DNA of 47,188 nt, taken from the NCBI GenBank assembly GCA_964344415.1, contig CAYFMS010000001.1, positions 383,315 through 430,502 of the forward strand, in the 5' to 3' direction. The notes under the pieces are model-generated. The model saw only the letters and a program-made list of their open reading frames with translations, had not been told where the DNA came from and made no database searches. The translations under genes and the position numbers were made by a program. Below, piece after piece: positions 2 through 46,901 of the stretch (position 1 is the stretch's first letter; each line of letters starts with the position of its first letter). The stretch is from an uncultured Gammaproteobacteria bacterium (GTDB lineage Bacteria > Patescibacteriota > Patescibacteriia > UBA9934).

Positions 2-3000
2 GGGGATTGGGGGCATGTCCCGCAGGCGGGTGTTTGGCCTATGACAGGAATGGCTGGCGCGACATCGAATTACATGGTTAATTTCCCAATTACGGAACAG
101 ATTCGTGGTAATGCCAATGGCGGAAAGGTTGTACTGACATTCCCGAGTGGATTCAATGTAACGAATGCGGCAGTACTTTCGGATTCCTTCATCAATAAAG
201 ACGTGAATGTTCATGGTTCGGGAACGGTGGCAATTAATAGCGTAACAGCAAATAATCAAGCCCGAACCGTAACCGTAGACTTTTCTATCGCGACAGCTTG
301 TGGATCTGGAAATGTTGATCCTTGTGTATCGGGGGATGAAAATGACTTCATTTCATTTGACCTAGAAGGGATTGGGAATACAGACCAGCCGCGTGACTGG
401 GAAACATCTGGGTACACGGTAGATATTAAAACCATGACTGGATCGACGGTGAATGAAACCATGACATCGATGCCATTCTTCATTTCGCCGGCAGGAGACA
501 ATTCGCTGCAAGTCGATTTGACGGCTGCTGGGGCGGACACAGGTACGGCGGATGTTCATATTTGGTCTCCGGGTACAGGTGAAATGACGGCAACGGCCAA
601 TTTTGCGACGAATGGAGACGGTACAGCCTCTGTTACATTTAGCGGACTTCCTTCTGATTACTTCGATATTTGGATGGATCCTGTTTTGACCATTAAAGCA
701 TCGGATGATTTTGTTGGTCCAATGAATGAACCTGTATTTGTGACCGGTAGTACAACAAAGGCAATTACGCTTTCAGCGACTTCAGGGCTGACAAGTGTCA
801 CGGTAAATGTTACGGGCGCAACTGGAAAGGATATCGATGTCTTTGCTGGTGGTCCTAACGGATTTACTGTTAAGCGTATTTCTAGCACAACGGGAAGCGA
901 TTCTGTGACATTGAAATTAGCGGATGGTGATTGGCATGTTGGTGTTGGCCCGCATATGTCTATGGATGGAGGATTTACCATGCCAGAGCCACCAGACTAT
1001 ATCGTTTCACCGGGGAATTTGAATTTGTCAGTTGCAAGTCCAAATGTTACGGAAGATTCTGGCACGGCAAATGATGGAACAGTTACATTCGATTTGTCGC
1101 CCGCATCAGATTCTGTAACGGTTAATGTTGTTGATGAGTCTGGAAATCCTGTTATGGATGCCATGATATTCATGGACTCTACCGAGGGAGGATTTGGAAC
1201 ATTCGGACAAACGTCAGGAGCTGGTTCTGCAACATTGAATGTAAATCCAGGAACCTATCGTGCCGGAGCATTCCTTGATGGTACGCCTCCGACTCGTGAA
1301 ATCCGTGTACGTGTTGCGGATGATGGTAGTGTTTATCAGGACGGTACGCTTGTGAATGCGGTAACAATTGAATTGAGTAAAGGGGATTATGCGATTAGCG
1401 GAACGGTAACGGATGGAAATAATGCGGTAACAGGAGCGGCCGTTCATGCATTCTGTACAGCGAATTGTGAAGGATATTTCGATGCAGGCGCGATGACCAA
1501 TTCAAATGGTAAATACACATTGTATGTTGGGGCAGGTACATGGCAGGTTGAGGCATTTATTCCGGGATTTGGTAGCTCGACCCGTTCGACGGTAGTGATT
1601 ACAACAGATGATGAAACGGGAGTAAATCTTAGCCCGGATTCTGATGTGACATTTAGAACCATTTCTGGAACGGTCTGTAAGAAAGATGGCGGAGGAGCTG
1701 ATTGTACAGGTGGAACTGGAATAGACGGTATTGAAATTTTTGCTTGGTCAGATGCAAATGGTGGAGGCTCGAACTTCACACAAACAGGTGCGGATGGAAC
1801 ATTCTCATTGCGAGTTCCTTCGGCGAGCGGATACACACTCGAGGCATGGGACCCGCGAAAAGGGCCGCTTCCGATCATTTCAAATGTCGACGTATCTTCT
1901 GGAAATCAGACGGATCAAGACATTGTGATCGACACCCCAGAAGGAGTAACGATTAATTTGAAAGACGATCAAGGGAATGCGGTAACAGTTGGTGAGGTAT
2001 TCATTGAATTCTTTGATGACTCAACAGAGGTGAGGCAGCATGTATTTATTGAGAATGACAGTGATGGAACAATTGATCTTCCAGAAGGAGTCTACGATGT
2101 ATTGGTGCATGCGAAAGGAGTGGAGCTTGATGAATCAACGGATGTAACTTCAGACGATGCGGGGACATCTGTAACATCAGGTGTTGTGACGGTGGATGGA
2201 ACAGAAGTAGTGAAAATCGAAATCCCAGACTTGCAAACTATTTCTGGAACATTGACGGATGGTTCTGACCCTGTGGAAGATGCATGGGTTGAGGTTACGG
2301 ATCCGACAACGGGTATTTCAACGGGTGGAGTGACGGATTCGAATGGTAATTACTCTATCTCTGTTCCGGACGGAACGTATCAGGTGAATGCATATAACCC
2401 AGGACTTGTTGTTGCGCCGATGACGGTCGCGGTAAGTGGGGCGAGTGCGACGGATCAAGATATGGAAGGGACGGTTTCTTCTCAGAATATTACCGGAACG
2501 GTGACGGATCCATCTGGAAATGCTGTACCATATGCTTTCGTAGAGGCTTCAAAATCTGGAGGAGGATTTACGGCGGTTCAGGCTGATGCAGATGGTGAAT
2601 ACTCTCTGCCAGTTGATGATGGAACATGGCAAGTAACGGCCATTGGTCATGGATATGAATCAGAAGCACTTGGTTCAAATGTCGTGATTAGCGGTTCATC
2701 AGATAGTGGAAATGATATTCAATTCGATACATCGGCCTCTGGATTGGCAGAACCAACTGTGAAGTCGGTAACACCGGCTGATGGAGGAACAGTGCAGGAT
2801 CAAACAGCAGGATTGACCGTTTCAATTCCAGCAAACGCAACGAGTACGTCTACAAGCGCGGGGACTGTTTCTATGAAAGAAACAAATAATGTTGTGAGTA
2901 CGGCGAATAATACGGTTGTCGGTGAAGGATTTGAAATTTCAATGACAGATGCGGGTGGTACGGCGCTTTCATCTGGATTTGATGAGGAAGTTTCCATTAA

Positions 3001-4354
3001 GAAAAACATGAGTGTGGCTGATCTTGATACCGCCGGCATTGATACGCTTGATGAGGTGAAGGATCTGAAAATATCTTATTTCTCTGGAAATGGGACATGG
3101 ATTCCAGAAAATACAACAAAGGCATATTTGGATGCAGATGGAGATGTTGTTGCGAGTCCGGCGGCTGATCTTTCAAATGTAACGACGGTGGCATTTACGA
3201 CAGCGGTGGATCACTTTACGGTCTTCTCAATTACGGCACCGGCTGATGGATTAGCACCAAAGGCACCAACGAATGTAAGTGCTTCTGTAGACGGTATGAA
3301 AGTAACAATTACATGGGATGCAGTAACAACGAACTCAGATGATACAGCCATCACAGACTTGCTTGGATATGAAATTTATCGTGATACTGATTCAGGCGGA
3401 GCTTTCTCAACACAATTGAATACTTCCGATATTCTGACAACGTCATATTCGGATTCAACGGTAGAAGGAAGCACGACATACTATTACAAAGTAACAGCGG
3501 CAGATACGGGCGGACAAGAATCGGCTATGTCATCTGCGGCAACGGCGGTGGTTGTTGGTTCAACGACAAGTTCAAGCGGGGGACGATCATCTACTCCGTC
3601 CGTGCAAGAAGATGATGATTCGGATGATGTGACGGAAGATGCTGAAACAACTGAAGAAGAAACTGTTTCTATTGATCCGGAAGATCCTGTCGCTGAACTC
3701 TATCCGGATAAGACCGAGACGGAAGCAGCATTACCGTCATCTGTGAATATCGGAAGCTTGGTGAAGCTAGCTGATAGCCCGGCCGTCTACTTCGTGGGAG
3801 GTGACGGTACTCGTCATCCATTCGCAAATGCTCATATTTACTTCACTTGGTATGACAATTTCGACGATGTAGAGACAATTTCGGCGGATGATATGGCGAA
3901 TATCCCAATGGGAGAAGCGGTTCGAGTGCGGCCAGGGACATGGCTTGTGAAAATTCAGAGCGATCCAAAGGTATATGCTGTTGAGCCAGGAGGGGCGCTT
4001 CGCTGGATTGAAACGGAAGAGGTTGCATTGACGCTATACGGTACGAATTGGAATCGTCGGATTATCGATGTAGAACCGATTTACTTCACTCGATACGAAA
4101 TAGGCGATCCAATTTCCGAAGCGAAAATTCATCCAGAGGGTTCAATTATACGAGATATTGCCACTGGAGATGTCTATTATGTGGCGGAAGATGGTACGCT
4201 TCGTAAGTTCATCGATGACGAGGCGGTTCAGGCCAATGAAATTCAGACCCAATATGTCTTGAATGCTACGACGAAGGATCTTGAAAGGACGATTGGTGAT
4301 CCAATTACTTCAAGAGAAGATATTCTGCTGTTCTACCAAGACATTGGAAGATAA
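2..4354 (+). CDS. Giant cell-surface/secreted protein, 5' end cut by the window edge: tandem carboxypeptidase-regulatory-like beta-sandwich repeats, one FN3-like module, acidic linker, C-terminal triple repeat
   Basis: ORF 41..4354 stays open in frame back to nt 2, and M41 is not followed by a signal peptide, so the gene probably starts upstream of the window. It has recurrent ~80-aa units of the type ISGTVTD..G.PV..A.V.....T.SNG.Y.L.V..GTY.V.A..PG. An FN3-like stretch reads APKAPTNVSASVDGMKVTITWDAV...YYYKVTAADTGGQES. A D/E-rich linker is followed by three VY.V...G..R modules at the C terminus. Confidence 0.85.
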   Translation, partial: GDWGHVPQAGVWPMTGMAGATSNYMVNFPITEQIRGNANGGKVVLTFPSGFNVTNAAVLSDSFINKDVNVHGSGTVAINSVTANNQARTVTVDFSIATACGSGNVDPCVSGDENDFISFDLEGIGNTDQPRDWETSGYTVDIKTMTGSTVNETMTSMPFFISPAGDNSLQVDLTAAGADTGTADVHIWSPGTGEMTATANFATNGDGTASVTFSGLPSDYFDIWMDPVLTIKASDDFVGPMNEPVFVTGSTTKAITLSATSGLTSVTVNVTGATGKDIDVFAGGPNGFTVKRISSTTGSDSVTLKLADGDWHVGVGPHMSMDGGFTMPEPPDYIVSPGNLNLSVASPNVTEDSGTANDGTVTFDLSPASDSVTVNVVDESGNPVMDAMIFMDSTEGGFGTFGQTSGAGSATLNVNPGTYRAGAFLDGTPPTREIRVRVADDGSVYQDGTLVNAVTIELSKGDYAISGTVTDGNNAVTGAAVHAFCTANCEGYFDAGAMTNSNGKYTLYVGAGTWQVEAFIPGFGSSTRSTVVITTDDETGVNLSPDSDVTFRTISGTVCKKDGGGADCTGGTGIDGIEIFAWSDANGGGSNFTQTGADGTFSLRVPSASGYTLEAWDPRKGPLPIISNVDVSSGNQTDQDIVIDTPEGVTINLKDDQGNAVTVGEVFIEFFDDSTEVRQHVFIENDSDGTIDLPEGVYDVLVHAKGVELDESTDVTSDDAGTSVTSGVVTVDGTEVVKIEIPDLQTISGTLTDGSDPVEDAWVEVTDPTTGISTGGVTDSNGNYSISVPDGTYQVNAYNPGLVVAPMTVAVSGASATDQDMEGTVSSQNITGTVTDPSGNAVPYAFVEASKSGGGFTAVQADADGEYSLPVDDGTWQVTAIGHGYESEALGSNVVISGSSDSGNDIQFDTSASGLAEPTVKSVTPADGGTVQDQTAGLTVSIPANATSTSTSAGTVSMKETNNVVSTANNTVVGEGFEISMTDAGGTALSSGFDEEVSIKKNMSVADLDTAGIDTLDEVKDLKISYFSGNGTWIPENTTKAYLDADGDVVASPAADLSNVTTVAFTTAVDHFTVFSITAPADGLAPKAPTNVSASVDGMKVTITWDAVTTNSDDTAITDLLGYEIYRDTDSGGAFSTQLNTSDILTTSYSDSTVEGSTTYYYKVTAADTGGQESAMSSAATAVVVGSTTSSSGGRSSTPSVQEDDDSDDVTEDAETTEEETVSIDPEDPVAELYPDKTETEAALPSSVNIGSLVKLADSPAVYFVGGDGTRHPFANAHIYFTWYDNFDDVETISADDMANIPMGEAVRVRPGTWLVKIQSDPKVYAVEPGGALRWIETEEVALTLYGTNWNRRIIDVEPIYFTRYEIGDPISEAKIHPEGSIIRDIATGDVYYVAEDGTLRKFIDDEAVQANEIQTQYVLNATTKDLERTIGDPITSREDILLFYQDIGR

Positions 4355-5231: not shown

Positions 5232-5912
5232 CTAGATTTCGCGCAGGAATGAGAAGGTTTGACCCTTGTCATCCCATGCGCCCGAATTTTCCATGATTTC
5301 GTGCATGGCATTGCCGGTCTCGGCATCGGTCCACTGAATCATGGTTCTCACGGTCGCGAGGTCGCCGTTGTCGTCTGGGATCATGTTCTCGGTCAGTTCT
5401 GGACTGACATCGATCACGATTTCTCCTTCTTCGTGGGTGTCCACGAAGAGATTGACGTCCTCAACGATGAATACGACGAGCTCTTCGTCATGCAGTTCAC
5501 CGTCTGATGTTACGACGGTGACTAGGCCGCGCTCCTCTCGATCGATCCAGTCAGCGTCGATCGTGATGAGCATATTGTCGACGAAGTACCCTTCGCCACA
5601 GCCGCGCTCGGCCGTGAACAGAAGGGACTGCTCGGCGCCGTCCTCGCGCGCGAAGAAGTCGGACTGAATTGTCCGTGCAATCGGTTGCGAGGTGGTTTCA
5701 TACGGCCCGTCGATCCAGTTGAACTGGAAGGGGTCGCATCCGTCATCCGCATCCTGATCGACATCCGGATCCCCGCGTGGGGATTCGAAAATGATCATGG
5801 GCGGCTGATTGCCTGCATCCGGATCTTCCACATACACATAAACCGTTTCCGGTTCGGGAATGCGGCACCCGGTCGCGACGATGAGCATCGCGAAGAAAAA
5901 TCGAAAGAACAT
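5232..5912 (-). CDS. GC-rich cassette 1: acidic lipoprotein of unknown function
   Basis: 226 aa. The signal peptide with lipobox is MFFRFFFAMLIVATG|C. SD AGGAGA lies 4 nt before ATG(5912). The sampled 60-nt line 5581 is 41/60 G+C against an AT-rich backbone. The product is very D/E-rich. Confidence 0.75.
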   Translation of the reverse strand: MFFRFFFAMLIVATGCRIPEPETVYVYVEDPDAGNQPPMIIFESPRGDPDVDQDADDGCDPFQFNWIDGPYETTSQPIARTIQSDFFAREDGAEQSLLFTAERGCGEGYFVDNMLITIDADWIDREERGLVTVVTSDGELHDEELVVFIVEDVNLFVDTHEEGEIVIDVSPELTENMIPDDNGDLATVRTMIQWTDAETGNAMHEIMENSGAWDDKGQTFSFLREI

Positions 5913-5975: not shown

Positions 5976-6004
5976 TTTTTAACACAAAAACGCAGATTTG
6001 TCAA
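5976..6004 (-). promoter_or_regulatory. Sigma70-type extended -10 promoter of cassette 1
   Basis: Minus strand reads TTGACA-AATCTGCGTTTTTG-TG-T-TAAAAA: perfect -35, 17-nt spacer and a TGn extension. Its -35 overlaps back-to-back with the ppa -35 (TTTGTCAA). Confidence 0.55.
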
Positions 6005-12874: not shown

Positions 12875-12903
12875 TTGACATTTGATGCATTTTATCCTAC
12901 CAT
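12875..12903 (+). promoter_or_regulatory. Candidate promoter for tRNA-Gln
   Basis: TTGACA-17 nt-TACCAT, about 118 nt upstream of the tRNA. It overlaps the truB start region on the other strand. Confidence 0.35.
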
Positions 12904-20169: not shown

Positions 20170-21138
20170 CTAGGGCGTCGCGCAGGTTTCGAATTGTACG
20201 TTCTGGAACTCGGCGCACATGGCGCCTTCCAGTTCGGCGACCCTGTCGAACAGGGACATGCCACCCCAGCTTGCGCCGAGATGGTAGCCGTAGTCCGACG
20301 TGATTTGACCCAGGATCATCTCCTGGACGCCCATCACGCCGACCCAGTCGGTCCCCTCGATGCCGTGAAGATCGTTCTCGAGCTCGTTCACCGAGCTCTC
20401 GATTCCACGTTCGATGCACCATTGCTCGTTCACGACATTTCCGTGCACGAGGCATGGGATGTCGTTCTCGACGCGAGTGATCCTCACATCGAGATCGAAG
20501 GTGTCGACGGACTGGTCGAGCACCGAAATCCGGTTGGTTTCGATCTTGTCCTGCAGCGACCAGAGGTCGGTGCCGGGATCGACGTGGAGCTCGTACCCGC
20601 TTGCGAGCGTACTTGCGTCGCTCGCTGCGATCGAACTCGACGGTGTACGCATCCGCGCGACCGTCGTGTTGAGCGCATTTGCGTTCGCTTCGAGGTCCCA
20701 GATGTCGACGCTCTGGTCGAGCGTTGCGATCCGGTTGGTTTCGACCTGCGCTTCGAGTTCCCAAACGCGCGCCTCGAGCTGACCAACCTCACCTTGGAGG
20801 ATGTTGATCGTGCTCTGTCGGGCCGGGCCCATCGACGTCTGTACGGTGGTGAAGACCTGGCGTTCCAGCTCCTCAATCCGCCCCTTGGCGACTACCAATG
20901 CAGCGCGATGCTGCATGACGGTGGTCTCGAGGCCACGCGCATACATTGTGAGCGATTCGAAATCACTCACGAGTGCGTCGTGGCGGCAGTCCCGCCACAC
21001 ATCGGTCCCTGCGGTCAAATGACCGCATTGGTCACCGCCCGCGTGTGCGGCAGTGGAACACATCGCCGCGCCGCAAAGCAGTACGACGATCACGATTCCG
21101 GCCATGCGGGCCAGGAGTCGGGTTGGGTAAATGGGCAT
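20170..21138 (-). CDS. GC-rich cassette 2a: exported Cys-loop / coiled-coil repeat protein, unknown function
   Basis: GGAGG lies 4 nt before ATG 21138. The signal peptide is MPIYPTRLLARMAGIVIVVLLCGAAMCSTAAHA. A C-x12-C loop (CGHLTAGTDVWRDC) is followed by heptad-like sequence with a 67-codon internal duplication (ETNRIATLDQSVDIWDLE / ETNRISVLDQSVDTFDLD). Sampled lines are 53-63% G+C. Confidence 0.7.
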   Translation of the reverse strand: MPIYPTRLLARMAGIVIVVLLCGAAMCSTAAHAGGDQCGHLTAGTDVWRDCRHDALVSDFESLTMYARGLETTVMQHRAALVVAKGRIEELERQVFTTVQTSMGPARQSTINILQGEVGQLEARVWELEAQVETNRIATLDQSVDIWDLEANANALNTTVARMRTPSSSIAASDASTLASGYELHVDPGTDLWSLQDKIETNRISVLDQSVDTFDLDVRITRVENDIPCLVHGNVVNEQWCIERGIESSVNELENDLHGIEGTDWVGVMGVQEMILGQITSDYGYHLGASWGGMSLFDRVAELEGAMCAEFQNVQFETCATP

Positions 21139-21200
21139 GTATCCTCCGAATGGCATTTTCAGCCAAAGTGCACGGAAATCTTGATGAAATCCGAGGGAAT

Positions 21201-21353: not shown

Positions 21354-22118
21354 CTAGGGTTCCGCGATCAGGGTCGGATACGTATACGGATCCTGACCAG
21401 AACTGGACCTCACGAGATCCGTACTGATCGTCTGAAACAATCCATCCTTAGCAATTCCTCCGTTTTTGAAGTTGCTCGAGGTGTAGATGTACTGCGTTTG
21501 GAAGTTCGCAGGAGTTGCCAACGTAGTTACGAAATCGCCGATCACAGCAACATCCATCGAATGGTTCTCCATGCCCGTGAAAACGCTGCCGGTAGCGGTA
21601 AGGACGAAGTCCCTGTCACCAGATCCATTCAGGAGCCCGACATCGAGCGGACCCATGCTCAGCGCGGCTGGATCGCCGACATCCGTCAAACGGACCAGGC
21701 GGACATTCACGAGATAGACATCGTATAGCGGGTCGACGGTGTCATTGATCGTGATCGGGAATCCGTGGAAAAAGGTCAGATCTTCGGTCCAGATCCTGCC
21801 CGTCCAGAGGACGATGTCATTCTCTGCTCCCGCATGCGGTTTAACCACAGATTTCTCATATCCCTCCAATTTCGTGGAGGTGATGTCGATTACATGATGT
21901 GGATCGACCTGCTGCGCATACAAATCGTCGACGTCCGCTTCGAGAGCGTCAACGCGATCTTGCAGTAGTGAACCGCTCGAGAGAAGGAAGAGAATTTGGC
22001 AATTCTGCCAGTCCTCACCTCCGCTCGTGTGCTGATCGCAGGGGGCCGCTTCCGCATAAGATGCGGGGATGATGAGCGCGGCGACGATCGCTACGAAGAG
22101 AAGAATAAGTTGCTTCAT
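21354..22118 (-). CDS. GC-rich cassette 2b: exported Cys-loop / coiled-coil protein with C-terminal beta-rich domain, paralogous N-terminus to 2a
   Basis: Start preferred at ATG 22118, giving MKQLILLFVAIVAALIIPASYAEA (signal peptide). The C-x12-C loop CDQHTSGGEDWQNC has the same spacing and the same T, G, D/E, W and D/N positions as in 2a. Confidence 0.7.
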   Translation of the reverse strand: MKQLILLFVAIVAALIIPASYAEAAPCDQHTSGGEDWQNCQILFLLSSGSLLQDRVDALEADVDDLYAQQVDPHHVIDITSTKLEGYEKSVVKPHAGAENDIVLWTGRIWTEDLTFFHGFPITINDTVDPLYDVYLVNVRLVRLTDVGDPAALSMGPLDVGLLNGSGDRDFVLTATGSVFTGMENHSMDVAVIGDFVTTLATPANFQTQYIYTSSNFKNGGIAKDGLFQTISTDLVRSSSGQDPYTYPTLIAEP

Positions 22119-22167
22119 TGCTTTTTCCTTTGAAGGATGTTGAACCTGCATGACCACAGGTGGCAGG

Positions 22168-25642: not shown

Positions 25643-27238
25643 ATGCCAAAAGACGCAAATAGACGACCAAGGCCTGCAGTGCTTATTATCATTGATGGAT
25701 TTGGTATAGCGCCTGACGGGGAGGGAAATGCGGTTACAAAGGCAAAAATGCCAACATTTGAAATGCTGAAACAGCGTTATCCGGTTGTTACATTGAAGGC
25801 CTCGGGCGAAACAGTAGGACTCATGTGGGGTGAGATGGGGAATTCCGAGGTTGGACATCTGACCATTGGTGCAGGTCGCGTTCATTTCCAGACATTGCCA
25901 AAAATTGAGAAAGCAATTGCGGATAAAAGTTTCTTTGAAAATGAAAAATTGCTAGCTGCGGCTGAACATGTGAAAAAGACAAAGGGCACTGTCCACATCT
26001 TTGGATTAATGTCATCTGGAAAGGTGCATGCATACAATAAGCATGCCTATGCTCTCCTTGAATTTTGTAAGAAGCAGAAAATAAAAGACGTGGCGATTCA
26101 CGCTGTTTTGGACGGGCGTGACACCCTTTATAATTCAGGGGCAGAGTTTATCGATGAATTGCAGGCGAAAATGAAGGAGCTGAAAATTGGGCATCTCGCA
26201 ACACTCTCGGGTCGATTTTATAGCATGGACCGCGACAATCGTTGGGACAGAACAGAGAAGGCGTATCGAGCGATGGTGCTCGGCGAATCAGATGAACAGT
26301 TCGACGATCCTATGGATGCCATCAGGGCATCATATGCGAAAGAAGTTTTTGATGAAGAATTTGTCCCAACCGTGATTACGAAGCGAGGAAAGCCTGTTGC
26401 GACCGTTCAGGATGGTGATGCAGTTGTTTTCTTCAATTTCAGACCAGACCGAGCTCGGCAGATTTCGAAAGCTTTTGTTCTCGATGATTTTAATAAATTC
26501 GAACGTGAAAAGATCAAGAATCTCTATTTTGCGAGCATGACAGAATATGAAGATGATTTGCCAACCGAGGTCATGTTTCCAACCGAAGAATTACAAAATA
26601 CGCTTGCGGAGGTTTTGTCAGATGCTGGACTTGTTCAATTGCATATTGCCGAAACAGAAAAATACGCTCATGTTACATTCTTTTTGAATGGCTCGCATGA
26701 AGACCCGTTCCCGCATGAAGATCGCGTGATTATTCCTTCACCGAAAGTCCCTTCATATGATGAAGCGCCTGATATGGCTACTCGGGAATTGACGGATAGG
26801 GTTTTGAAAGAGGTAAAGACAGATAATTACGATGTTATTATCTTGAATTTTGCCAGTCCAGACATGGTGGCGCATACGGGTAATTTTGATGCGACGGTGC
26901 AGGCACATGAAACGGTGGATGAATGTGTCGGAAAGATTGTAAAAGCTGTTTTAGCGCAAGACGGAGTTGTTTTAATTACAGCTGATCATGGAAATTCTGA
27001 AGAGGTGAAGAATATACAAACAGGTGAGATGGATAAAGAACATAGTACAAACCCAGTTCCGTTTTTTATCATTGCGAATCATTTGGAGGGTCAGCCAGGT
27101 ATTGCTGGAGACGTTCCTAGTGGTGATTTATCACTTATGCCTCCGATTGGGATGCTTGCTGATGTCGCGCCGACACTGCTTAAGATGCTTGGAGTTGATC
27201 AACCTAGCGACATGACAGGCACTCCACTTATTGATTAA
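25643..27238 (+). CDS. gpmI: 2,3-bisphosphoglycerate-independent phosphoglycerate mutase
   Basis: VLIIIDGFG, NSEVGHLTIGAGR, LDGRD, PDMVAHTG and TADHGN. The first ATG consistent with homologues is 25643 (MPKDANRRPRPAVL); the track's earlier start adds a non-homologous extension. Confidence 0.95.
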   Translation: MPKDANRRPRPAVLIIIDGFGIAPDGEGNAVTKAKMPTFEMLKQRYPVVTLKASGETVGLMWGEMGNSEVGHLTIGAGRVHFQTLPKIEKAIADKSFFENEKLLAAAEHVKKTKGTVHIFGLMSSGKVHAYNKHAYALLEFCKKQKIKDVAIHAVLDGRDTLYNSGAEFIDELQAKMKELKIGHLATLSGRFYSMDRDNRWDRTEKAYRAMVLGESDEQFDDPMDAIRASYAKEVFDEEFVPTVITKRGKPVATVQDGDAVVFFNFRPDRARQISKAFVLDDFNKFEREKIKNLYFASMTEYEDDLPTEVMFPTEELQNTLAEVLSDAGLVQLHIAETEKYAHVTFFLNGSHEDPFPHEDRVIIPSPKVPSYDEAPDMATRELTDRVLKEVKTDNYDVIILNFASPDMVAHTGNFDATVQAHETVDECVGKIVKAVLAQDGVVLITADHGNSEEVKNIQTGEMDKEHSTNPVPFFIIANHLEGQPGIAGDVPSGDLSLMPPIGMLADVAPTLLKMLGVDQPSDMTGTPLID

Positions 27239-27348
27239 TCCACAATCAAAGTCGGACATGAAATGTGGATAAGTTTACGAAACTGACTGATAATTGGTTG
27301 TTTTTTAATTTTCATCCACAGATAAAGTCCGACATTGTCTGTGGATAG
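27236..27348. promoter_or_regulatory. Cluster of four DnaA-box-like 9-mers with an AT-rich stretch, in a convergent intergenic region
   Basis: TAATCCACA (27236-27244), TGTGGATAA (27264-27272, perfect), TCATCCACA (27312-27320) and TGTGGATAG (27340-27348). The AT-rich GATAATTGGTTGTTTTTTAATTTTC lies between them. Confidence 0.5.
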
Positions 27349-27360
27349 ATTTTAGGTAAG

Positions 27361-27391
27361 AAAAAGCCCCTACCGCGAAAGCAGTAGGGGC
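27361..27391 (-). terminator. Intrinsic terminator of GC-rich cassette 3
   Basis: Minus strand reads GCCCCTAC-tgctttcgcg-GTAGGGGC followed by TTTTT. Confidence 0.8.
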
Positions 27392-27422
27392 GTAGGATCA
27401 CATCAGCCGTGTGCTGAGGTGA

Positions 27423-28940
27423 TTAGTTGTCGTAGCTGACGACGATCGCAGCACGATTGTTGTCCCAGTCGGTGGGGTATCCGTCGTCGTCGTAGTCGGT
27501 GAACGACTGTCCGTCGTAGGATTCCGACTCGGCGGTTCCGAGGTTGGTTTCCACGTTGACGTCCCAGATACCGAACAGTTCTTCCTCGACTTCGATGTCG
27601 ATGAAGTCACTGTTGCCATTCTCGTCGACGATGTGATGAGCTTGACCGTTGTCATCGGTAGCAAATCCATTGAACCAGAATTCGTCGTCGATGTCTCCGC
27701 TCAGGGTGACCTCGACGATGTCTCCGGATTCCAGATTCGTCATGTTGACGAGGAAAACCTCGTCGTTCGAGATGACGCCATCAGCTGCCAGCTGTCCACG
27801 CCCGTACCAATAGTTGATTTCGGGCGAGTCGGTCCGGTCGGACCGGGCCCCGAACAGCTCCAGCTTGTCGAGGTCTTCCTCGATCTCGATGGTGAAGGTG
27901 ATCTGGGTCAAGTGATCGCAGGCGCCGGACTCATCGACTTTGTCGTCGCAGTCGTTGTCGTTGCCGTCACAGAACTCGTCTTCGTTGGGGTTGACGTAGA
28001 ACTCGTCGTCGTCGCAGTCGAGATCGTCGCCGTCCTCGTAGTCGACTTCGTCGGTCTGGCATTCCTCGCGGAGGGTGCCGTCGTCGTCCTCATCACCGAA
28101 CCCGTCTGCATCATCGTCGTCGATGCACAGGTACAGGCACGACTCTTGATCTGCATCGTCTTCTCCGCTGCAGTCGTTGTCGATGTTGTCGTCGCAGTTG
28201 CCCTCGTCGATCTCTTCGATCTCGGCGGGGCTGACGTCATCATCATCGTCATCGCAGTCGGTGTTGTCCTCGACTTCGTCTGCTTCGCATTCGGAGCGTT
28301 GGATGGCAGCTTCGCCATCATCTCCGAACCCGTCGCCGTCGAAATCGGGATAGCAGTTGACCATGGTCACGTCGCCGCAGTTCTCGAAGACGTCGAAGTC
28401 TTCGTCATCGCAGTCGGTATTGTTCCAGCTCCCTTCGATGAGAGTGCAGGTGAGCTCGCTGACCGCGAGTCCAGAATCATTCGAATCGCCATACCCATCG
28501 CCATCAGTGTCTCTGAAGCAGAGGGTGTAGCAGATGTTCTGGACGTCAAACTCTTCGTCATTGCAGTCGGAGTTGTTCAGGCTGTGCCAGCCGTCACTCA
28601 CCAGTGCATCGCAGTCGTCGCTCGGAATCTCGATCCCTGGATCGAGCGGATCACCGAATCCATCGCCGTCGCTGTCGATGTAGCACATGACATCTTCCAC
28701 AACGCTGCAGTTCTCGAAGACATAGAAGTCTTCGTCATCGCAGTCGGTGTTGTTCAGGCTGTACGTACCAGCGTCCACCAGTACGTCACAGTCGTCGCTT
28801 GGAATCTCGATGCCTGGATCGAGCGGGTCACCATAGGTATCGCCGTCGCCGTCGATGTAGCACATGACGTCGGGATTGCTCTGACCACCTCCGAAGAAGT
28901 AGATCCAGAGCATGAACAGGAATTGTTTGAATGCGGTCAT
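27423..28940 (-). CDS. GC-rich cassette 3: exported protein with five Cys/Asp-rich 'putative metal-binding motif' (MopE-like) repeats, poly-acidic linker and C-terminal beta-rich domain
   Basis: GGAGG lies 4 nt before ATG 28940 (MTAFKQFLFMLWIYFFGGG). Repeats have the form C(Y/F).D.DGDG(Y/F)GD.......C......(W/Y)...N.DCDD.D..V; the first two are near-identical. A later motif is CDGNDNDCDDKVDE. Asp is almost always GAC. Sampled line 27961 is 34/60 G+C. Confidence 0.75.
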   Translation of the reverse strand: MTAFKQFLFMLWIYFFGGGQSNPDVMCYIDGDGDTYGDPLDPGIEIPSDDCDVLVDAGTYSLNNTDCDDEDFYVFENCSVVEDVMCYIDSDGDGFGDPLDPGIEIPSDDCDALVSDGWHSLNNSDCNDEEFDVQNICYTLCFRDTDGDGYGDSNDSGLAVSELTCTLIEGSWNNTDCDDEDFDVFENCGDVTMVNCYPDFDGDGFGDDGEAAIQRSECEADEVEDNTDCDDDDDDVSPAEIEEIDEGNCDDNIDNDCSGEDDADQESCLYLCIDDDDADGFGDEDDDGTLREECQTDEVDYEDGDDLDCDDDEFYVNPNEDEFCDGNDNDCDDKVDESGACDHLTQITFTIEIEEDLDKLELFGARSDRTDSPEINYWYGRGQLAADGVISNDEVFLVNMTNLESGDIVEVTLSGDIDDEFWFNGFATDDNGQAHHIVDENGNSDFIDIEVEEELFGIWDVNVETNLGTAESESYDGQSFTDYDDDGYPTDWDNNRAAIVVSYDN

Positions 28941-29019
28941 GCCGCCTCCATTGTCTCGTGTTGAAAATGTACGTAAACACCCGTTAGACGGGAGTCCACG
29001 AAATAACTCGTGGTCGCAA

Positions 29020-29048
29020 AAAGTAGCACAAAATGCCTCATTTGTCAA
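29020..29048 (-). promoter_or_regulatory. Extended -10 promoter of cassette 3
   Basis: Minus strand reads TTGACA-AATGAGGCATTTTG-TG-C-TACTTT. Confidence 0.55.
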
Positions 29049-29109
29049 TGCTGAGACTGGAAAAAATGATCATTATGATATAGTTCAGACAACCTTTTTT
29101 TGGAAAAAT

Positions 29110-29943
29110 ATGAAGAAAATGCAAGAAATTGGCCAAGATAAGCCACATTCTAAGGTTATCACAACTTTGGTGGTGATTATCCTATTCTTACTTATAGGAA
29201 TAATAGTGCTACTTTCATTGCTATTTTGGAATGATGTGACAGATTTCGCTGATCAGATTCCAGAGGATGAAATTTCAACTGAAATGACCGATGATTCACA
29301 AGATGAAGATGTCCTAGATATTGAAGAAAATGACGAATCATCTGAAATAAGTGCATTACCATATCTCGAAAACACATCACGAAATATCGATTTTTCCTTT
29401 GAATCGACGTATTTGAATCAAATTCGTAATACGAATACCTATCCATATTGCCAGAAAATTGCTGGACATGATGGTGTTCCAGTGTCCGAACTGAATGAAG
29501 AAATTATTTCTCAAATGCTCCCAGAATTAGATCCTACGAATCTGACGGCAGTCACGCACCAGATTTTTACGATTCTTGATGCGAATAATCTAAATATCCA
29601 TCAAAAATGCCAGGGAACTGGATGGCAGATTCTAACGGCAGGAAATATAAATACGGGGCAATTGATGCTTATGCAAATCAATTCAGATGCTTTGACTCCA
29701 GGACAATTTCAATTGAATCAATTTGAAACGGTATCAAATGTGATTGATATGACATATGACATTATTGATTTCGGAGACTTTGTAGGGCTTTGGCATGGAT
29801 ATGGCGATGCTGGAATTGTTAGCTGGGAGGTGCGTCGTATTGATTTTGAATCTATGACACTTGATTTATATGAGTCATGTCAAGCCGAGGCATTTATGGA
29901 TCCGGGTCAGTTGACATGTGAACGGGAATATATTTCAGGGTAA
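29110..29943 (+). CDS. Hypothetical membrane-anchored protein
   Basis: Start preferred at ATG 29110 (MKKMQEIGQ...). The ORF-track upstream extension overlaps the cassette-3 promoter and start. TM VITTLVVIILFLLIGIIVLLSLLFW, then an acidic linker and a globular domain with no motif I recognise. Confidence 0.65.
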   Translation: MKKMQEIGQDKPHSKVITTLVVIILFLLIGIIVLLSLLFWNDVTDFADQIPEDEISTEMTDDSQDEDVLDIEENDESSEISALPYLENTSRNIDFSFESTYLNQIRNTNTYPYCQKIAGHDGVPVSELNEEIISQMLPELDPTNLTAVTHQIFTILDANNLNIHQKCQGTGWQILTAGNINTGQLMLMQINSDALTPGQFQLNQFETVSNVIDMTYDIIDFGDFVGLWHGYGDAGIVSWEVRRIDFESMTLDLYESCQAEAFMDPGQLTCEREYISG

Positions 29944-39455: not shown

Positions 39456-39493
39456 TTATCCACATTTAACGTCCGACATTGTCTGTGGATAAG
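39456..39493. promoter_or_regulatory. Two perfect, inverted DnaA-box 9-mers and a copy of the GTCCGACATTGTCTGTGGATAAG repeat
   Basis: TTATCCACA (39456-39464) and TGTGGATAA (39484-39492). Positions 39471-39492 are identical to 27327-27348 except for the last base. Confidence 0.5.
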
Positions 39494-45226: not shown

Positions 45227-45255
45227 TTGACAAAAAGGTCATTTTTTGCTAGTTT
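45227..45255 (+). promoter_or_regulatory. Extended -10 promoter of cassette 4
   Basis: TTGACA-AAAAGGTCATTTTT-TG-C-TAGTTT. Confidence 0.55.
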
Positions 45256-45299
45256 TTGAAGTCGCATTTTGTGTAAAATGCGCGTACTTTGGAGGTAAA

Positions 45300-46901
45300 A
45301 TGAGAGAAAAACAAGGGGTGGCGACGCCAAAATGGCCGAGCTATCCTGTCCGAACCAAGCAGTGTTGGTTTGAGGAGGACAATAAGTCCACCTGGCCGGT
45401 GCTGTACACACATGTGAGCGCTGACCTGGATGCTCTTCTTGCGATTGCGGCCTATTGTTACTACAAGGGGCTCGTGATCGACGAAAACTGCAAGATCAGG
45501 TTCGTCGAGGCCAATTGGAGCGGTGAGATGGATTTGGCGAGGGGAGACCGCGCCTTTGACATCAAAGCACCCGTTCACTTTGACGGGATCACAGATCGTG
45601 ACCGCGATCAGTGGCCGAAAGATGAATCCCGCCGATATCATCGCGGATGGAAGGGGAAAACCGAGCAGGACGGCGCGACATTGTCCGTTTTCTCACTCGT
45701 CATGAAGCGATGCGCTCCACGTGAGCATGTCAACTACTTCAAGCAACTCATGAGCATTGTGGACAATCACGATGCTTATGGGTCAGCGATGAAGGGCTTC
45801 AAGGAGCGAGTTCATCCGGACTTGCTGAACATGCTCAGGCAAATCGGTGTCGTGGAGGTTTATCGCGCTCTGCAAGGCGCGCGGAAGCTCGACATGTTCA
45901 GCAAATTCGATTTGCCCAAATGTCGGACTAAGGAACACAGGTCAGACTATAAAATGGTGGCATTATTTGTTGCCATTTTCCGAGGCATGGCCGCGCAAGC
46001 AGATCGAGCAACCTATGCGGACTATGTTCCACTGAAGGCTGCTCTCGAGAATCGCTTTGATCCCGAGGACCGCGAATATTACGATGTGCTGATGAAGCAT
46101 GTCGATGTGGTGCTCGGCAAGGAGGATCCTCATGTCATTGACGGACTGTTCCGCAATCCTGAAGGAAAATTTCTGAGCGCTGACCTGCGCAAAGAAATCT
46201 TCATGACCGTCAGGCAGGCGAGTCTACCACTCTTCGTAAAGGGCGCGAAGACGGCTGCCGAGAATGGCTGGATCGATTTCATTCCTGGCGAGGATGCAAC
46301 GGAGCGTTGCGAGTATCTGTGTGACATGATTGCACAGGGATTCGTGAACAATCTGTCAGCCTTGCGGGAAGCTGAACAGTTCGTACGGGAAGGGCTCGAC
46401 GCCTATCACGCGAGTGATGGAGTCGGATATCGGCTCACGACATTCCATCAGTTGCAATTTGCGAATGATGAGCAGAATGAGGATCCGGTGGTGGCGGTGC
46501 TGAATGTGCCGAAATCAGAGGACAATTTCAAGCTGCATGAAGTCCTGTGGAAACATGGGATGAAGGTCATCATCCGCATTGATCGTAAAAATGTCGCCAT
46601 CATCAGACGCCCTGACAGCAGGGATTTCTGGATGGATGACGAGCGGCTTACGTCTTTGATCGAACGCTTGGATGAAACCTGGGATCGGGATGGAATCCTT
46701 AGCAAGGGCGGTAAGCTCAACTGGTTTGCTCATGAGGGTGGCTGGTTGTTAGCATCGGGTACGAAGAAGGCTCCCGCCAAGAAGCTCACCATTATCCGAT
46801 ACGACCGTATCGTGGAAGTGGTGTGCAAAATCCTGCGTGATCCCAAGGCTGCCAATCAGGAAAAGCGGCAGCATCACAGTAGTAGTGAACGACATTCCTA
46901 G
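45300..46901 (+). CDS. GC-rich cassette 4: 533-aa cytoplasmic orphan protein; weak DHH/DHHA1-phosphoesterase-like motifs
   Basis: GGAGG lies 4 nt before ATG 45300 (the track starts at TTG 45246). There is no signal peptide. LYTHVSADLDAL (H-x3-D-x-D), VDNHDA and FAHEGGWLLASG loosely resemble DHH motifs I, III and the DHHA1 GGGH region. Sampled line 45541 is 34/60 G+C. Confidence 0.7.
   Translation: MREKQGVATPKWPSYPVRTKQCWFEEDNKSTWPVLYTHVSADLDALLAIAAYCYYKGLVIDENCKIRFVEANWSGEMDLARGDRAFDIKAPVHFDGITDRDRDQWPKDESRRYHRGWKGKTEQDGATLSVFSLVMKRCAPREHVNYFKQLMSIVDNHDAYGSAMKGFKERVHPDLLNMLRQIGVVEVYRALQGARKLDMFSKFDLPKCRTKEHRSDYKMVALFVAIFRGMAAQADRATYADYVPLKAALENRFDPEDREYYDVLMKHVDVVLGKEDPHVIDGLFRNPEGKFLSADLRKEIFMTVRQASLPLFVKGAKTAAENGWIDFIPGEDATERCEYLCDMIAQGFVNNLSALREAEQFVREGLDAYHASDGVGYRLTTFHQLQFANDEQNEDPVVAVLNVPKSEDNFKLHEVLWKHGMKVIIRIDRKNVAIIRRPDSRDFWMDDERLTSLIERLDETWDRDGILSKGGKLNWFAHEGGWLLASGTKKAPAKKLTIIRYDRIVEVVCKILRDPKAANQEKRQHHSSSERHS

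Follow-up and report, generated by a model that had tools for sequence, protein, structure and literature searches.

Within a 47,188-nucleotide stretch of an uncultured bacterial genome (contig CAYFMS010000001.1 of assembly GCA_964344415.1, positions 383,315 to 430,502; here called the window), one minus-strand gene (27423 to 28940; hereafter the target) encodes a putative secreted, acidic protein of 505 amino acids (aa) that combines five Cys/Asp-rich repeat units with an orphan C-terminal domain. The explanation we favor, with modest confidence in it as a whole, is that this acquired gene specifies an exported stalk of Cys/Asp repeats, held by Ca2+ and disulfides, that ends in a C-terminal head. 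An open reading frame (ORF) would have arrived by horizontal transfer from a GC-richer donor and then been placed behind a promoter of the host type. Once exported, each unit would fold as a small disulfide-locked module; the repeats contain all 24 Cys of the protein, and every unit has an even number of them. These modules would be stabilized by Ca2+ on the DxDxDG loops that open units 2 to 5 and would jointly build a rigid, strongly negative stalk. By analogy with homologues, this stalk would display the beta-rich C-terminal domain for adhesion to, or interaction with, a host cell, a partner cell, or the environment.

A life attached to other cells is the prevailing view of Patescibacteria, or the candidate phyla radiation (CPR), whose surface proteins are for the most part uncharacterized. 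The target would place a Cys/Asp "MopE-like" repeat protein with an orphan putative binding domain in a lineage that gave no named homologue. It is a divergent singleton, found in an unusual host, of a repeat family already known, and not a new kind of thing; to our knowledge, the MopE-related repeat has no solved structure and no assayed function in any organism.

The gene, its signals, and its genomic background

Between 27361 and 29048, the longest and only long minus-strand ORF runs from 27423 to 29048 and opens with TTG. For the target, the ATG at 28940 is the most plausible start, downstream of GGAGG-CGGC, where the GGAGG (28945 to 28949, minus strand) reads as a Shine-Dalgarno sequence 4 nucleotides (nt) upstream of the ATG; the coding sequence then comprises 505 codons and a TAA stop. 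A promoter is predicted on the same strand at 29024 to 29048, with TTGACA (29047 to 29042), a 17-nt spacer that includes ATTTTgTGc, and TACTTT as the −10 element, which matches at only three of six positions and was hence missed by a generic promoter scan. An extended motif, TTGACA-N8-ATTTT-N-T-NN-TA, occurs five times in the window against 0.02 expected. One copy is the target promoter and another lies upstream of tRNA-Gln, and because of this recurrence the promoter looks host-type. At the other end, fold computation placed an intrinsic terminator at 27391 to 27366 (minus strand; 8 pairs of the 11-bp stem are GC, and a T run follows), in a region whose 81-nt fold reaches −35.5 kcal/mol (z = −8.6). 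A first-pass annotation of this DNA, made by a model from the letters alone, had claimed a TTGACA/TGn promoter of the gene's own, GGAGG-N4-ATG, and a strong terminator, and all of these were located on the minus strand. On such signals, the target reads as a real, intact, monocistronic gene.

Public gene calls for the source contig annotate, in place of the target, a Val-rich plus-strand ORF of 442 aa (442/443; 27636 to 28964), which we judge not to be a gene. Genes rich in GAC and GTC usually cast such a Val-rich antisense shadow. Among 5.8 billion clusters, this ORF matched only itself, as a singleton cluster, and it has no Pfam domain; a search with it for relatives called on the wrong strand returned none. 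It is hardly credible that the annotated ORF is the true gene or that the GC-rich segment is a chimeric assembly. Sharp jumps in composition at both ends of the segment, and the origin of all copies from one sequencing project, would suit such an artefact as the public call does, but the composition shifts exactly at the host-type promoter and terminator, the segment lies inside a 768-kb contig, and an independent Logan assembly put it together in the same way. The minus-strand frame also has highly significant homology, conserved Cys spacing, and a ribosome-binding site besides its promoter and terminator, and the window holds four more genes of this composition. Gene callers here picked the wrong strand of an Asp-rich, GAC-codon gene with a long Val-rich antisense ORF, which is why the target protein is missing from the 5.8 billion clustered proteins.

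On the plus strand, a neighboring membrane-protein gene is called at 28939 to 29943, from a position that abuts the start codon of the target. Translation of this neighbor probably begins instead at the ATG at 29110, which gives MKKMQ... and then a transmembrane helix.

The contig to which the window belongs (ENA ERZ930061, metagenomic) has a CPR-like gene set, and the relatives of its gpmI at 54 to 77% identity are metagenome-assembled genomes (MAGs) of Patescibacteria, several of them named Uhrbacteria or Magasanikbacteria. Judged by these matches, the backbone is that of an Uhrbacteria-like Patescibacteria genome. A search of the literature on the source project (PRJEB17505) returned nothing. 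Many of the closest backbone relatives (related loci L003, L005, L006, L009, and L010, among others) are GTDB-representative MAGs titled "uncultured Gammaproteobacteria bacterium" (TPA_asm, binchicken/SRP co-assemblies); on relatives with gpmI identity of up to 77%, such titles look like placeholders or mislabels.

Against this backbone, the codon usage of the target is foreign along its whole length. GC content is 0.50 to 0.56 in the gene versus 0.37 to 0.44 in the flanks, with the step falling at the terminator on one side and at the promoter on the other, and the GC content of 0.562 observed for the gene compares with 0.418 expected under backbone codon usage. GC content at third codon positions (GC3) is 0.752, versus 0.379 ± 0.04 in 31 backbone genes (z = 9.3), and holds at 0.72 to 0.77 in the signal segment, the repeats, and the C-terminal domain alike. 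Codon shares of GAC (0.73 versus 0.23), AAC (0.76 versus 0.09), and ATC (0.92 versus 0.20) bear out the earlier statement that the gene departs from backbone usage; the genome, described there as low in GC, is so only moderately, at about 43%. Neither rplU nor dnaB has the codon bias of the target. In four genomes that bear homologues (48 to 72% GC), the GC content of the gene equals that of its surroundings, so amino acid content is not the cause of the anomaly.

Cys/Asp repeats and their relatives

The 505-aa product is extremely acidic, with 110 Asp and 48 Glu against only 10 Lys plus Arg, and it contains 24 Cys and 4 His. Its N-terminal segment (aa 1 to 25; 28866 to 28940, minus strand, as are all parts of the protein that follow) includes MTAFK, FLFMLWIYFF, and GGGQS and resembles a Sec signal peptide or else a signal anchor. 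AlphaFold2 (AF2) predicts a helix at residues 2 to 16, at a predicted local distance difference test score (pLDDT) of about 70. The segment has no lipobox; homologues have typical lipoprotein signals (..AC, ..GC).

Five repeat units follow, starting at aa 27, 86, 141, 196, and 272, with openings of the type C[YFI]xDxDxDG[YF]GD and an xDC[DN]D motif in each. This is the array that had been described from the letters alone, except that the opening of unit 1 reads DGDGDTYGD. Units 1 (aa 27 to 85; 28686 to 28862), 2 (aa 86 to 140; 28521 to 28685), and 3 (aa 141 to 195; 28356 to 28520) are short, at 55 to 59 aa with four Cys each, and units 4 (aa 196 to 271; 28128 to 28355) and 5 (aa 272 to 342; 27915 to 28127) are long, at 71 to 76 aa with six Cys each. 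Unit 4 has a degenerate CDDNIDNDCSG half, and unit 5 alone has a complete canonical second half; CDGNDNDCDDKVDE is located at aa 324 to 337. Poly-D/E runs, previously placed after the repeats, sit inside units 4 and 5 instead.

Units 1 and 2 had been taken for nearly identical products of a recent duplication. They are identical at 37 of 55 aa (67%) and at about 82% of nucleotides over 153 nt (unit 1 lies within this direct repeat, D4, which also marks unit 2), and Tandem Repeats Finder did not report them as a tandem array. They appear to be a tandem duplication that is neither recent nor near-identical. With a 118-row family alignment, AF2 modeled the repeat region at a mean pLDDT of 76, highest in unit 4 (>90), and no solved structural relative of this model was found. 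Single-sequence AF2 of the full protein gave a pLDDT of 37 and was unusable.

The relationship of these repeats to known proteins is clear in some searches and weak in others. With phmmer, 983 proteins matched at an E value of 1e-3 or below (best E, 1.5e-39), nearly all of them with PF11617, and the named matches were mostly from Myxococcota or Deltaproteobacteria or called "MopE-related protein." A BLASTP alignment with one such protein (P0001) is in register with the repeats, and hhalign of a 50-unit canonical profile against the target gave 95.5% probability (E, 1.5e-8; unit 5). Pfam's own PF11617 model found one stretch, at aa 308 to 337 (DCDDDEFYVNPNEDEFCDGNDNDCDDKVDE; 27930 to 28019; E, 9.8e-5), with 23.0 bits for the protein and 23.8 bits for the repeat region alone, versus a gathering threshold of 27 bits; homologues score 248 to 272 bits over seven to nine stretches. 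The score is weak because units 1 to 3 lack the CDGxDNDC half, the half that PF11617 models. Only unit 5 keeps this half in full, and in unit 4 it is degenerate. The MopE-like assignment of the first-pass annotation therefore holds by homology but falls short in Pfam, and its caution that a family HMM might find nothing was answered by a sub-threshold Pfam match beside a strongly significant phmmer result. NCBIfam had nothing for the target, and PHROGs gave one insignificant match.

The canonical unit clarifies how far the target has diverged. It is 61 aa long with four Cys, reads [WFY]YxDxDGDG[YF]GD, 7 residues, C, 12 residues, DCDD, and PxAxExCDGxDNDCDGxxDE, and recurs with a period of 66 to 73 aa. 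Units 4 and 5 fit this anatomy with insertions, and units 1 to 3 match its first half only. None of 418 canonical units opens with Cys, the opening residue being W, F, or Y; every unit of the target opens with Cys and closes with an extra Cys. Short units that lack the second half, of 45 aa with two Cys, are found in other members (P0077, P0020, and P0065).

No close homologue was found in protein databases (either strand), related loci, or JGI metagenome contigs. The full protein had four weak, repeat-only matches in JGI metagenomes and seven weak, distant, repeat-only matches in IMG/VR, which indicate no phage vector. Close homologues of similar GC content, common in the same lineage, were the result that the first-pass annotation had named as counting against it; none turned up anywhere we searched. 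By these comparisons, the target belongs to a known repeat superfamily as a divergent singleton that scores below the Pfam threshold. The association with high-GC Myxococcota drawn earlier for the repeat fits the names of most matches, but homologues are native to genomes across the 48 to 72% GC range.

Probable horizontal origin and a possible class of C3-rich genes

The target lies between gpmI and nth. In nine relatives, the gpmI-nth spacing is about 20 bp to 1.3 kb (2.9 kb in L043), and a target homologue is absent from the interval in L010, L019, L022, L005, L007, L013, L016, L036, and L043; none was found in 67 related loci. Together with the foreign codons and the lack of close homologues in the searches, this gives good support to a horizontal origin of the target, probably from a GC-richer donor. 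The horizontal acquisition proposed at the outset stands to that extent, but GC3 is weaker evidence for a recent transfer than had been supposed, being neither a clock for the event nor a pointer to Myxococcota. The repeat family is typical of Myxococcota-like bacteria, which are candidate donors alongside GC-richer Patescibacteria.

Between the gpmI stop and the target terminator are two tandem copies (27238 to 27270 and 27314 to 27346) of a palindromic 33-nt element, ATCCACA-N19-TGTGGAT. With its core, GTC[CG]GACAT, the element occurs in three copies against 0.01 expected, the third at 39458 to 39490, and it was not found in related loci. At the 3′ side of the target, it may mark the 3′ junction; it could be a repetitive extragenic palindromic (REP)-like element or an operator. 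One copy overlaps the predicted start of a fatty-acid desaturase ORF. An explanation by a diversity-generating retroelement (such elements are common in CPR), integrase, or transposase was rejected, as no reverse transcriptase domain is present among the window ORFs and no part of the target has a second copy in the window.

The anomaly of the target is not confined to it. GC3 outliers, at 0.60 to 0.77, make up 5 of the 36 window genes, the others being 5232 to 5912 (minus strand), 20170 to 21156 (minus), 21354 to 22151 (minus), and 45246 to 46901 (plus). The frequency of C at third codon positions (C3) is 0.29 to 0.45 in these four and 0.29 to 0.58 in all five, versus 0.10 to 0.18 in backbone genes. 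The N-terminus resembles a signal or lipoprotein sequence in three of the four, Pfam domains are absent from all of them, and three are preceded by the extended promoter motif of the target. Outside the target promoter, copies of this motif lie at 6004 to 5980 (minus), 21229 to 21205 (minus), 45227 to 45251 (plus), and 12875 to 12899 (plus).

One of the outliers, 20170 to 21156, has homologues next to mraZ/uvrC in two related loci, and these are GC3 outliers there as well (0.66 versus 0.35 in L003 and 0.83 versus 0.42 in L016). The homologue in L003 (1034 to 1789, minus) has a nearly identical promoter (1878 to 1854), although the two proteins are only 32% identical; the homologue in L016 is at 559 to 1278 (minus). 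The pattern suggests that the promoter is conserved while the coding sequence behind it evolves fast or has been replaced. Members of the family are predicted to be secreted coiled-coil proteins; they share the N-terminal motif C-G-H-L-T-x-G-x-x-x-W-x-x-C, in a weaker form in L016, and end in C-x-P. The presence of syntenic high-GC3 orthologues in relatives means that anomalous codon usage can persist in the lineage or be renewed by exchange.

These genes raise the alternative that the target was not acquired recently and belongs to a class of C3-rich genes that is intrinsic to the lineage, its members being monocistronic and strongly promoted and their codon usage long maintained. The cause would be selection on C-ending codons or repeated exchange of surface-gene cassettes among Patescibacteria of differing GC content, and GC3 would then be silent on when, or from whom, the target came. 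We regard this alternative as rather unlikely. It would account for five C3-elevated outliers in a window of 36 genes, for the signal- or lipoprotein-like N-termini of four of the five and the tRNA-Gln promoter motif before four of the five, and for the outlier that recurs in the same neighborhood in two relatives, in one of them behind a nearly identical promoter. Related Patescibacteria range up to 66% GC, and the majority of transfers into Patescibacteria stem from other Patescibacteria (PMC12455944). However, the target itself has no orthologue in the 67 related loci or the databases searched, and nearly all named sources of its repeat family are Myxococcota or Deltaproteobacteria. The C3 of rplU, a typical highly expressed gene, is 0.15, and its lack of bias means that ordinary expression-linked selection is not an obvious cause; translational selection as the source of the C3 bias was supported by neither rplU nor clpB. 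The CTG/CTC leucine and GGC glycine usage of the target, in turn, resembles that of a GC-rich donor and not wobble optimization.

A bolder proposal, which we consider unlikely, is that the target belongs to an undescribed class of single-gene cassettes in Uhrbacteria-like Patescibacteria. Each would pair a strong, conserved promoter (TTGACA-N8-ATTTTnTnnTA) with a fast-evolving, C3-rich gene, most often one whose product is secreted, and would occupy either a fixed or a new site in a genome of otherwise low GC3, with the anomaly kept across species. If true, such cassettes would represent a dedicated route by which episymbionts exchange or renew surface proteins, either between Patescibacteria of differing GC content or from hosts, and in the target it would have taken up a stalk of Cys/Asp repeats of the Myxococcota type. 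This promoter-tagged, C3-rich class is a more curious lead than the target itself. It also bears on how horizontal gene transfer is called in such genomes, where five C3-rich genes include four with one promoter type and one that is conserved along with its anomaly. At the edge of the window, a gene for a 1,437-aa putative surface protein with at least four CarboxypepD_reg-like domains (41 to 4354, plus strand) has a backbone-like GC3 of 0.36.

Putative metal binding, the C-terminal domain, and known systems

The loops that open units 2 to 5 read DSDGDG, DTDGDG, DFDGDG, and DDDADG, and that of unit 1 reads DGDGDT. DxDxDG loops are a calcium-binding motif, as in thrombospondin type-3 repeats and EF-hand-like loops. 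From these motifs only, the repeats of the target are taken as putative Ca2+ binders. Searched against PDB sequences, the protein, the C-terminal domain, and the unit profile gave only 2VOV (MopE*), at an E value of 0.012 and over residues 13 to 43 of that structure for the unit profile, and insignificant matches to AOAH and to the EF-hand protein polcalcin (unit profile; E, 0.97). In MopE*, Ca2+ is stabilizing and the motif-bearing N-terminus is Asp-rich (PMC3423442).

Copper had been offered as a second ligand. A role in copper acquisition, after the manner of methanotroph MopE/CorA, would agree with the name of the sole Pfam match, Cu-binding_MopE, with the contact between the canonical unit profile and 2VOV, and with the weak Cu(II) retention, by immobilized metal affinity chromatography, that has been ascribed to the Asp-rich MopE* N-terminus (PMC3423442). 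The high-affinity Cu(I) site of MopE*/CorA, however, consists of two His and a kynurenine in the beta-domain, outside the motif (PMC3423442, PMC3912023). This domain has no counterpart in the target, which gave no PDB match to 2VOV/CorA at an E value of 1 or below, has 4 His in 505 aa, and lies in a CPR genome with no methane or ammonia oxidation context. Copper binding is thus unsupported for the target, and a role in copper acquisition is very improbable.

The repeats lead into the orphan C-terminal domain (aa 343 to 505; 27426 to 27914), which is acidic and, at 163 aa, a little shorter than the approximately 170 aa first estimated. The structure prediction called for earlier made it all-beta at low confidence, with AF2 strands at a pLDDT below 50. 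The domain had no match in Pfam, PDB, or JGI metagenome contigs and no similarity to the other high-GC3 proteins of the window. An exhaustive HMMER search of 1.84 billion representatives gave three matches, all judged spurious, being long repetitive proteins aligned in many short stretches. The repeat arrays of homologues lead into Lectin_C, fibrinogen_C, LTD, or beta-helix domains, and it is because homologues end in such binding-type domains that the target is read as a stalk plus a head.

Several points weigh against an acquired gene for a Ca2+- and disulfide-held stalk with an adhesive head. The protein scores below the threshold of Pfam's own PF11617 model, and its best identity to any protein is 38% and confined to the repeats. 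The four other high-GC3 genes, three of them sharing the promoter type, weaken the step from GC3 to recent transfer; for one of the four, relatives carry syntenic orthologues that are high in GC3 too. The flanks of the target show no mobility gene, no tRNA target, and no clear junction of direct repeats: the window contains no integrase or transposase, its only tRNA is 14 kb away, and no direct repeats bracket the gene. Only analogy speaks for the C-terminal domain as an adhesin. In the crystal of MopE*, the motif region is missing or disordered (PMC3423442), which leaves the repeat with no structural or functional precedent.

Among known systems, thrombospondin type-3 and EF-hand-like loops resemble the openings of units 2 to 5, including the further Asp that follows, and such proteins are likewise Cys-rich, secreted, and tandem; neither by sequence nor by fold did the target significantly match a thrombospondin or EF-hand structure. 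A C-terminally membrane-anchored protein on a metagenomic contig of 43% GC (L073, 40 to 2028, plus strand) alternates thrombospondin-type-3-like DSDGDGLxD repeats with a PF11617-like DCDDxDxxxxPGxxExxDGxDNDCDE motif, an independent hint that PF11617-like motifs may work with Ca-binding repeats. The teneurin cysteine-rich domain and the CxDGxDNDxDG motif of algae and diatoms resemble the CDGxDNDCDG core of unit 5, and the teneurin Cys-rich motif has been aligned with PF11617 (PMC3278476). This likeness covers a motif of 14 to 23 aa in units 4 and 5 only, and the target has no other teneurin domain. MopE of Methylococcus capsulatus and CorA of Methylomicrobium album (2VOV) are surface or secreted proteins, as the target putatively is, and are stabilized by Ca2+ (PMC3423442, PMC3912023). 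MopE has one motif where the target has an array, and the Cu(I)-binding beta-sandwich of MopE/CorA, with its His/His/kynurenine site, is absent from the target.

The MopE-related PF11617 proteins (such as P0001, P0002, P0008, and P0064) offer the fullest comparison. The target differs from them in its CPR host, in a gene composition foreign to that host, and in its orphan C-terminal domain. Like the target, they have xYxDxDGDG[YF]GD openings, internal Cys, and DCDD, and they share the PxxxExCDGxDNDCDGxxDE half with units 4 and 5 and the overall layout of an export signal, a repeat array, and a C-terminal domain that varies from protein to protein.

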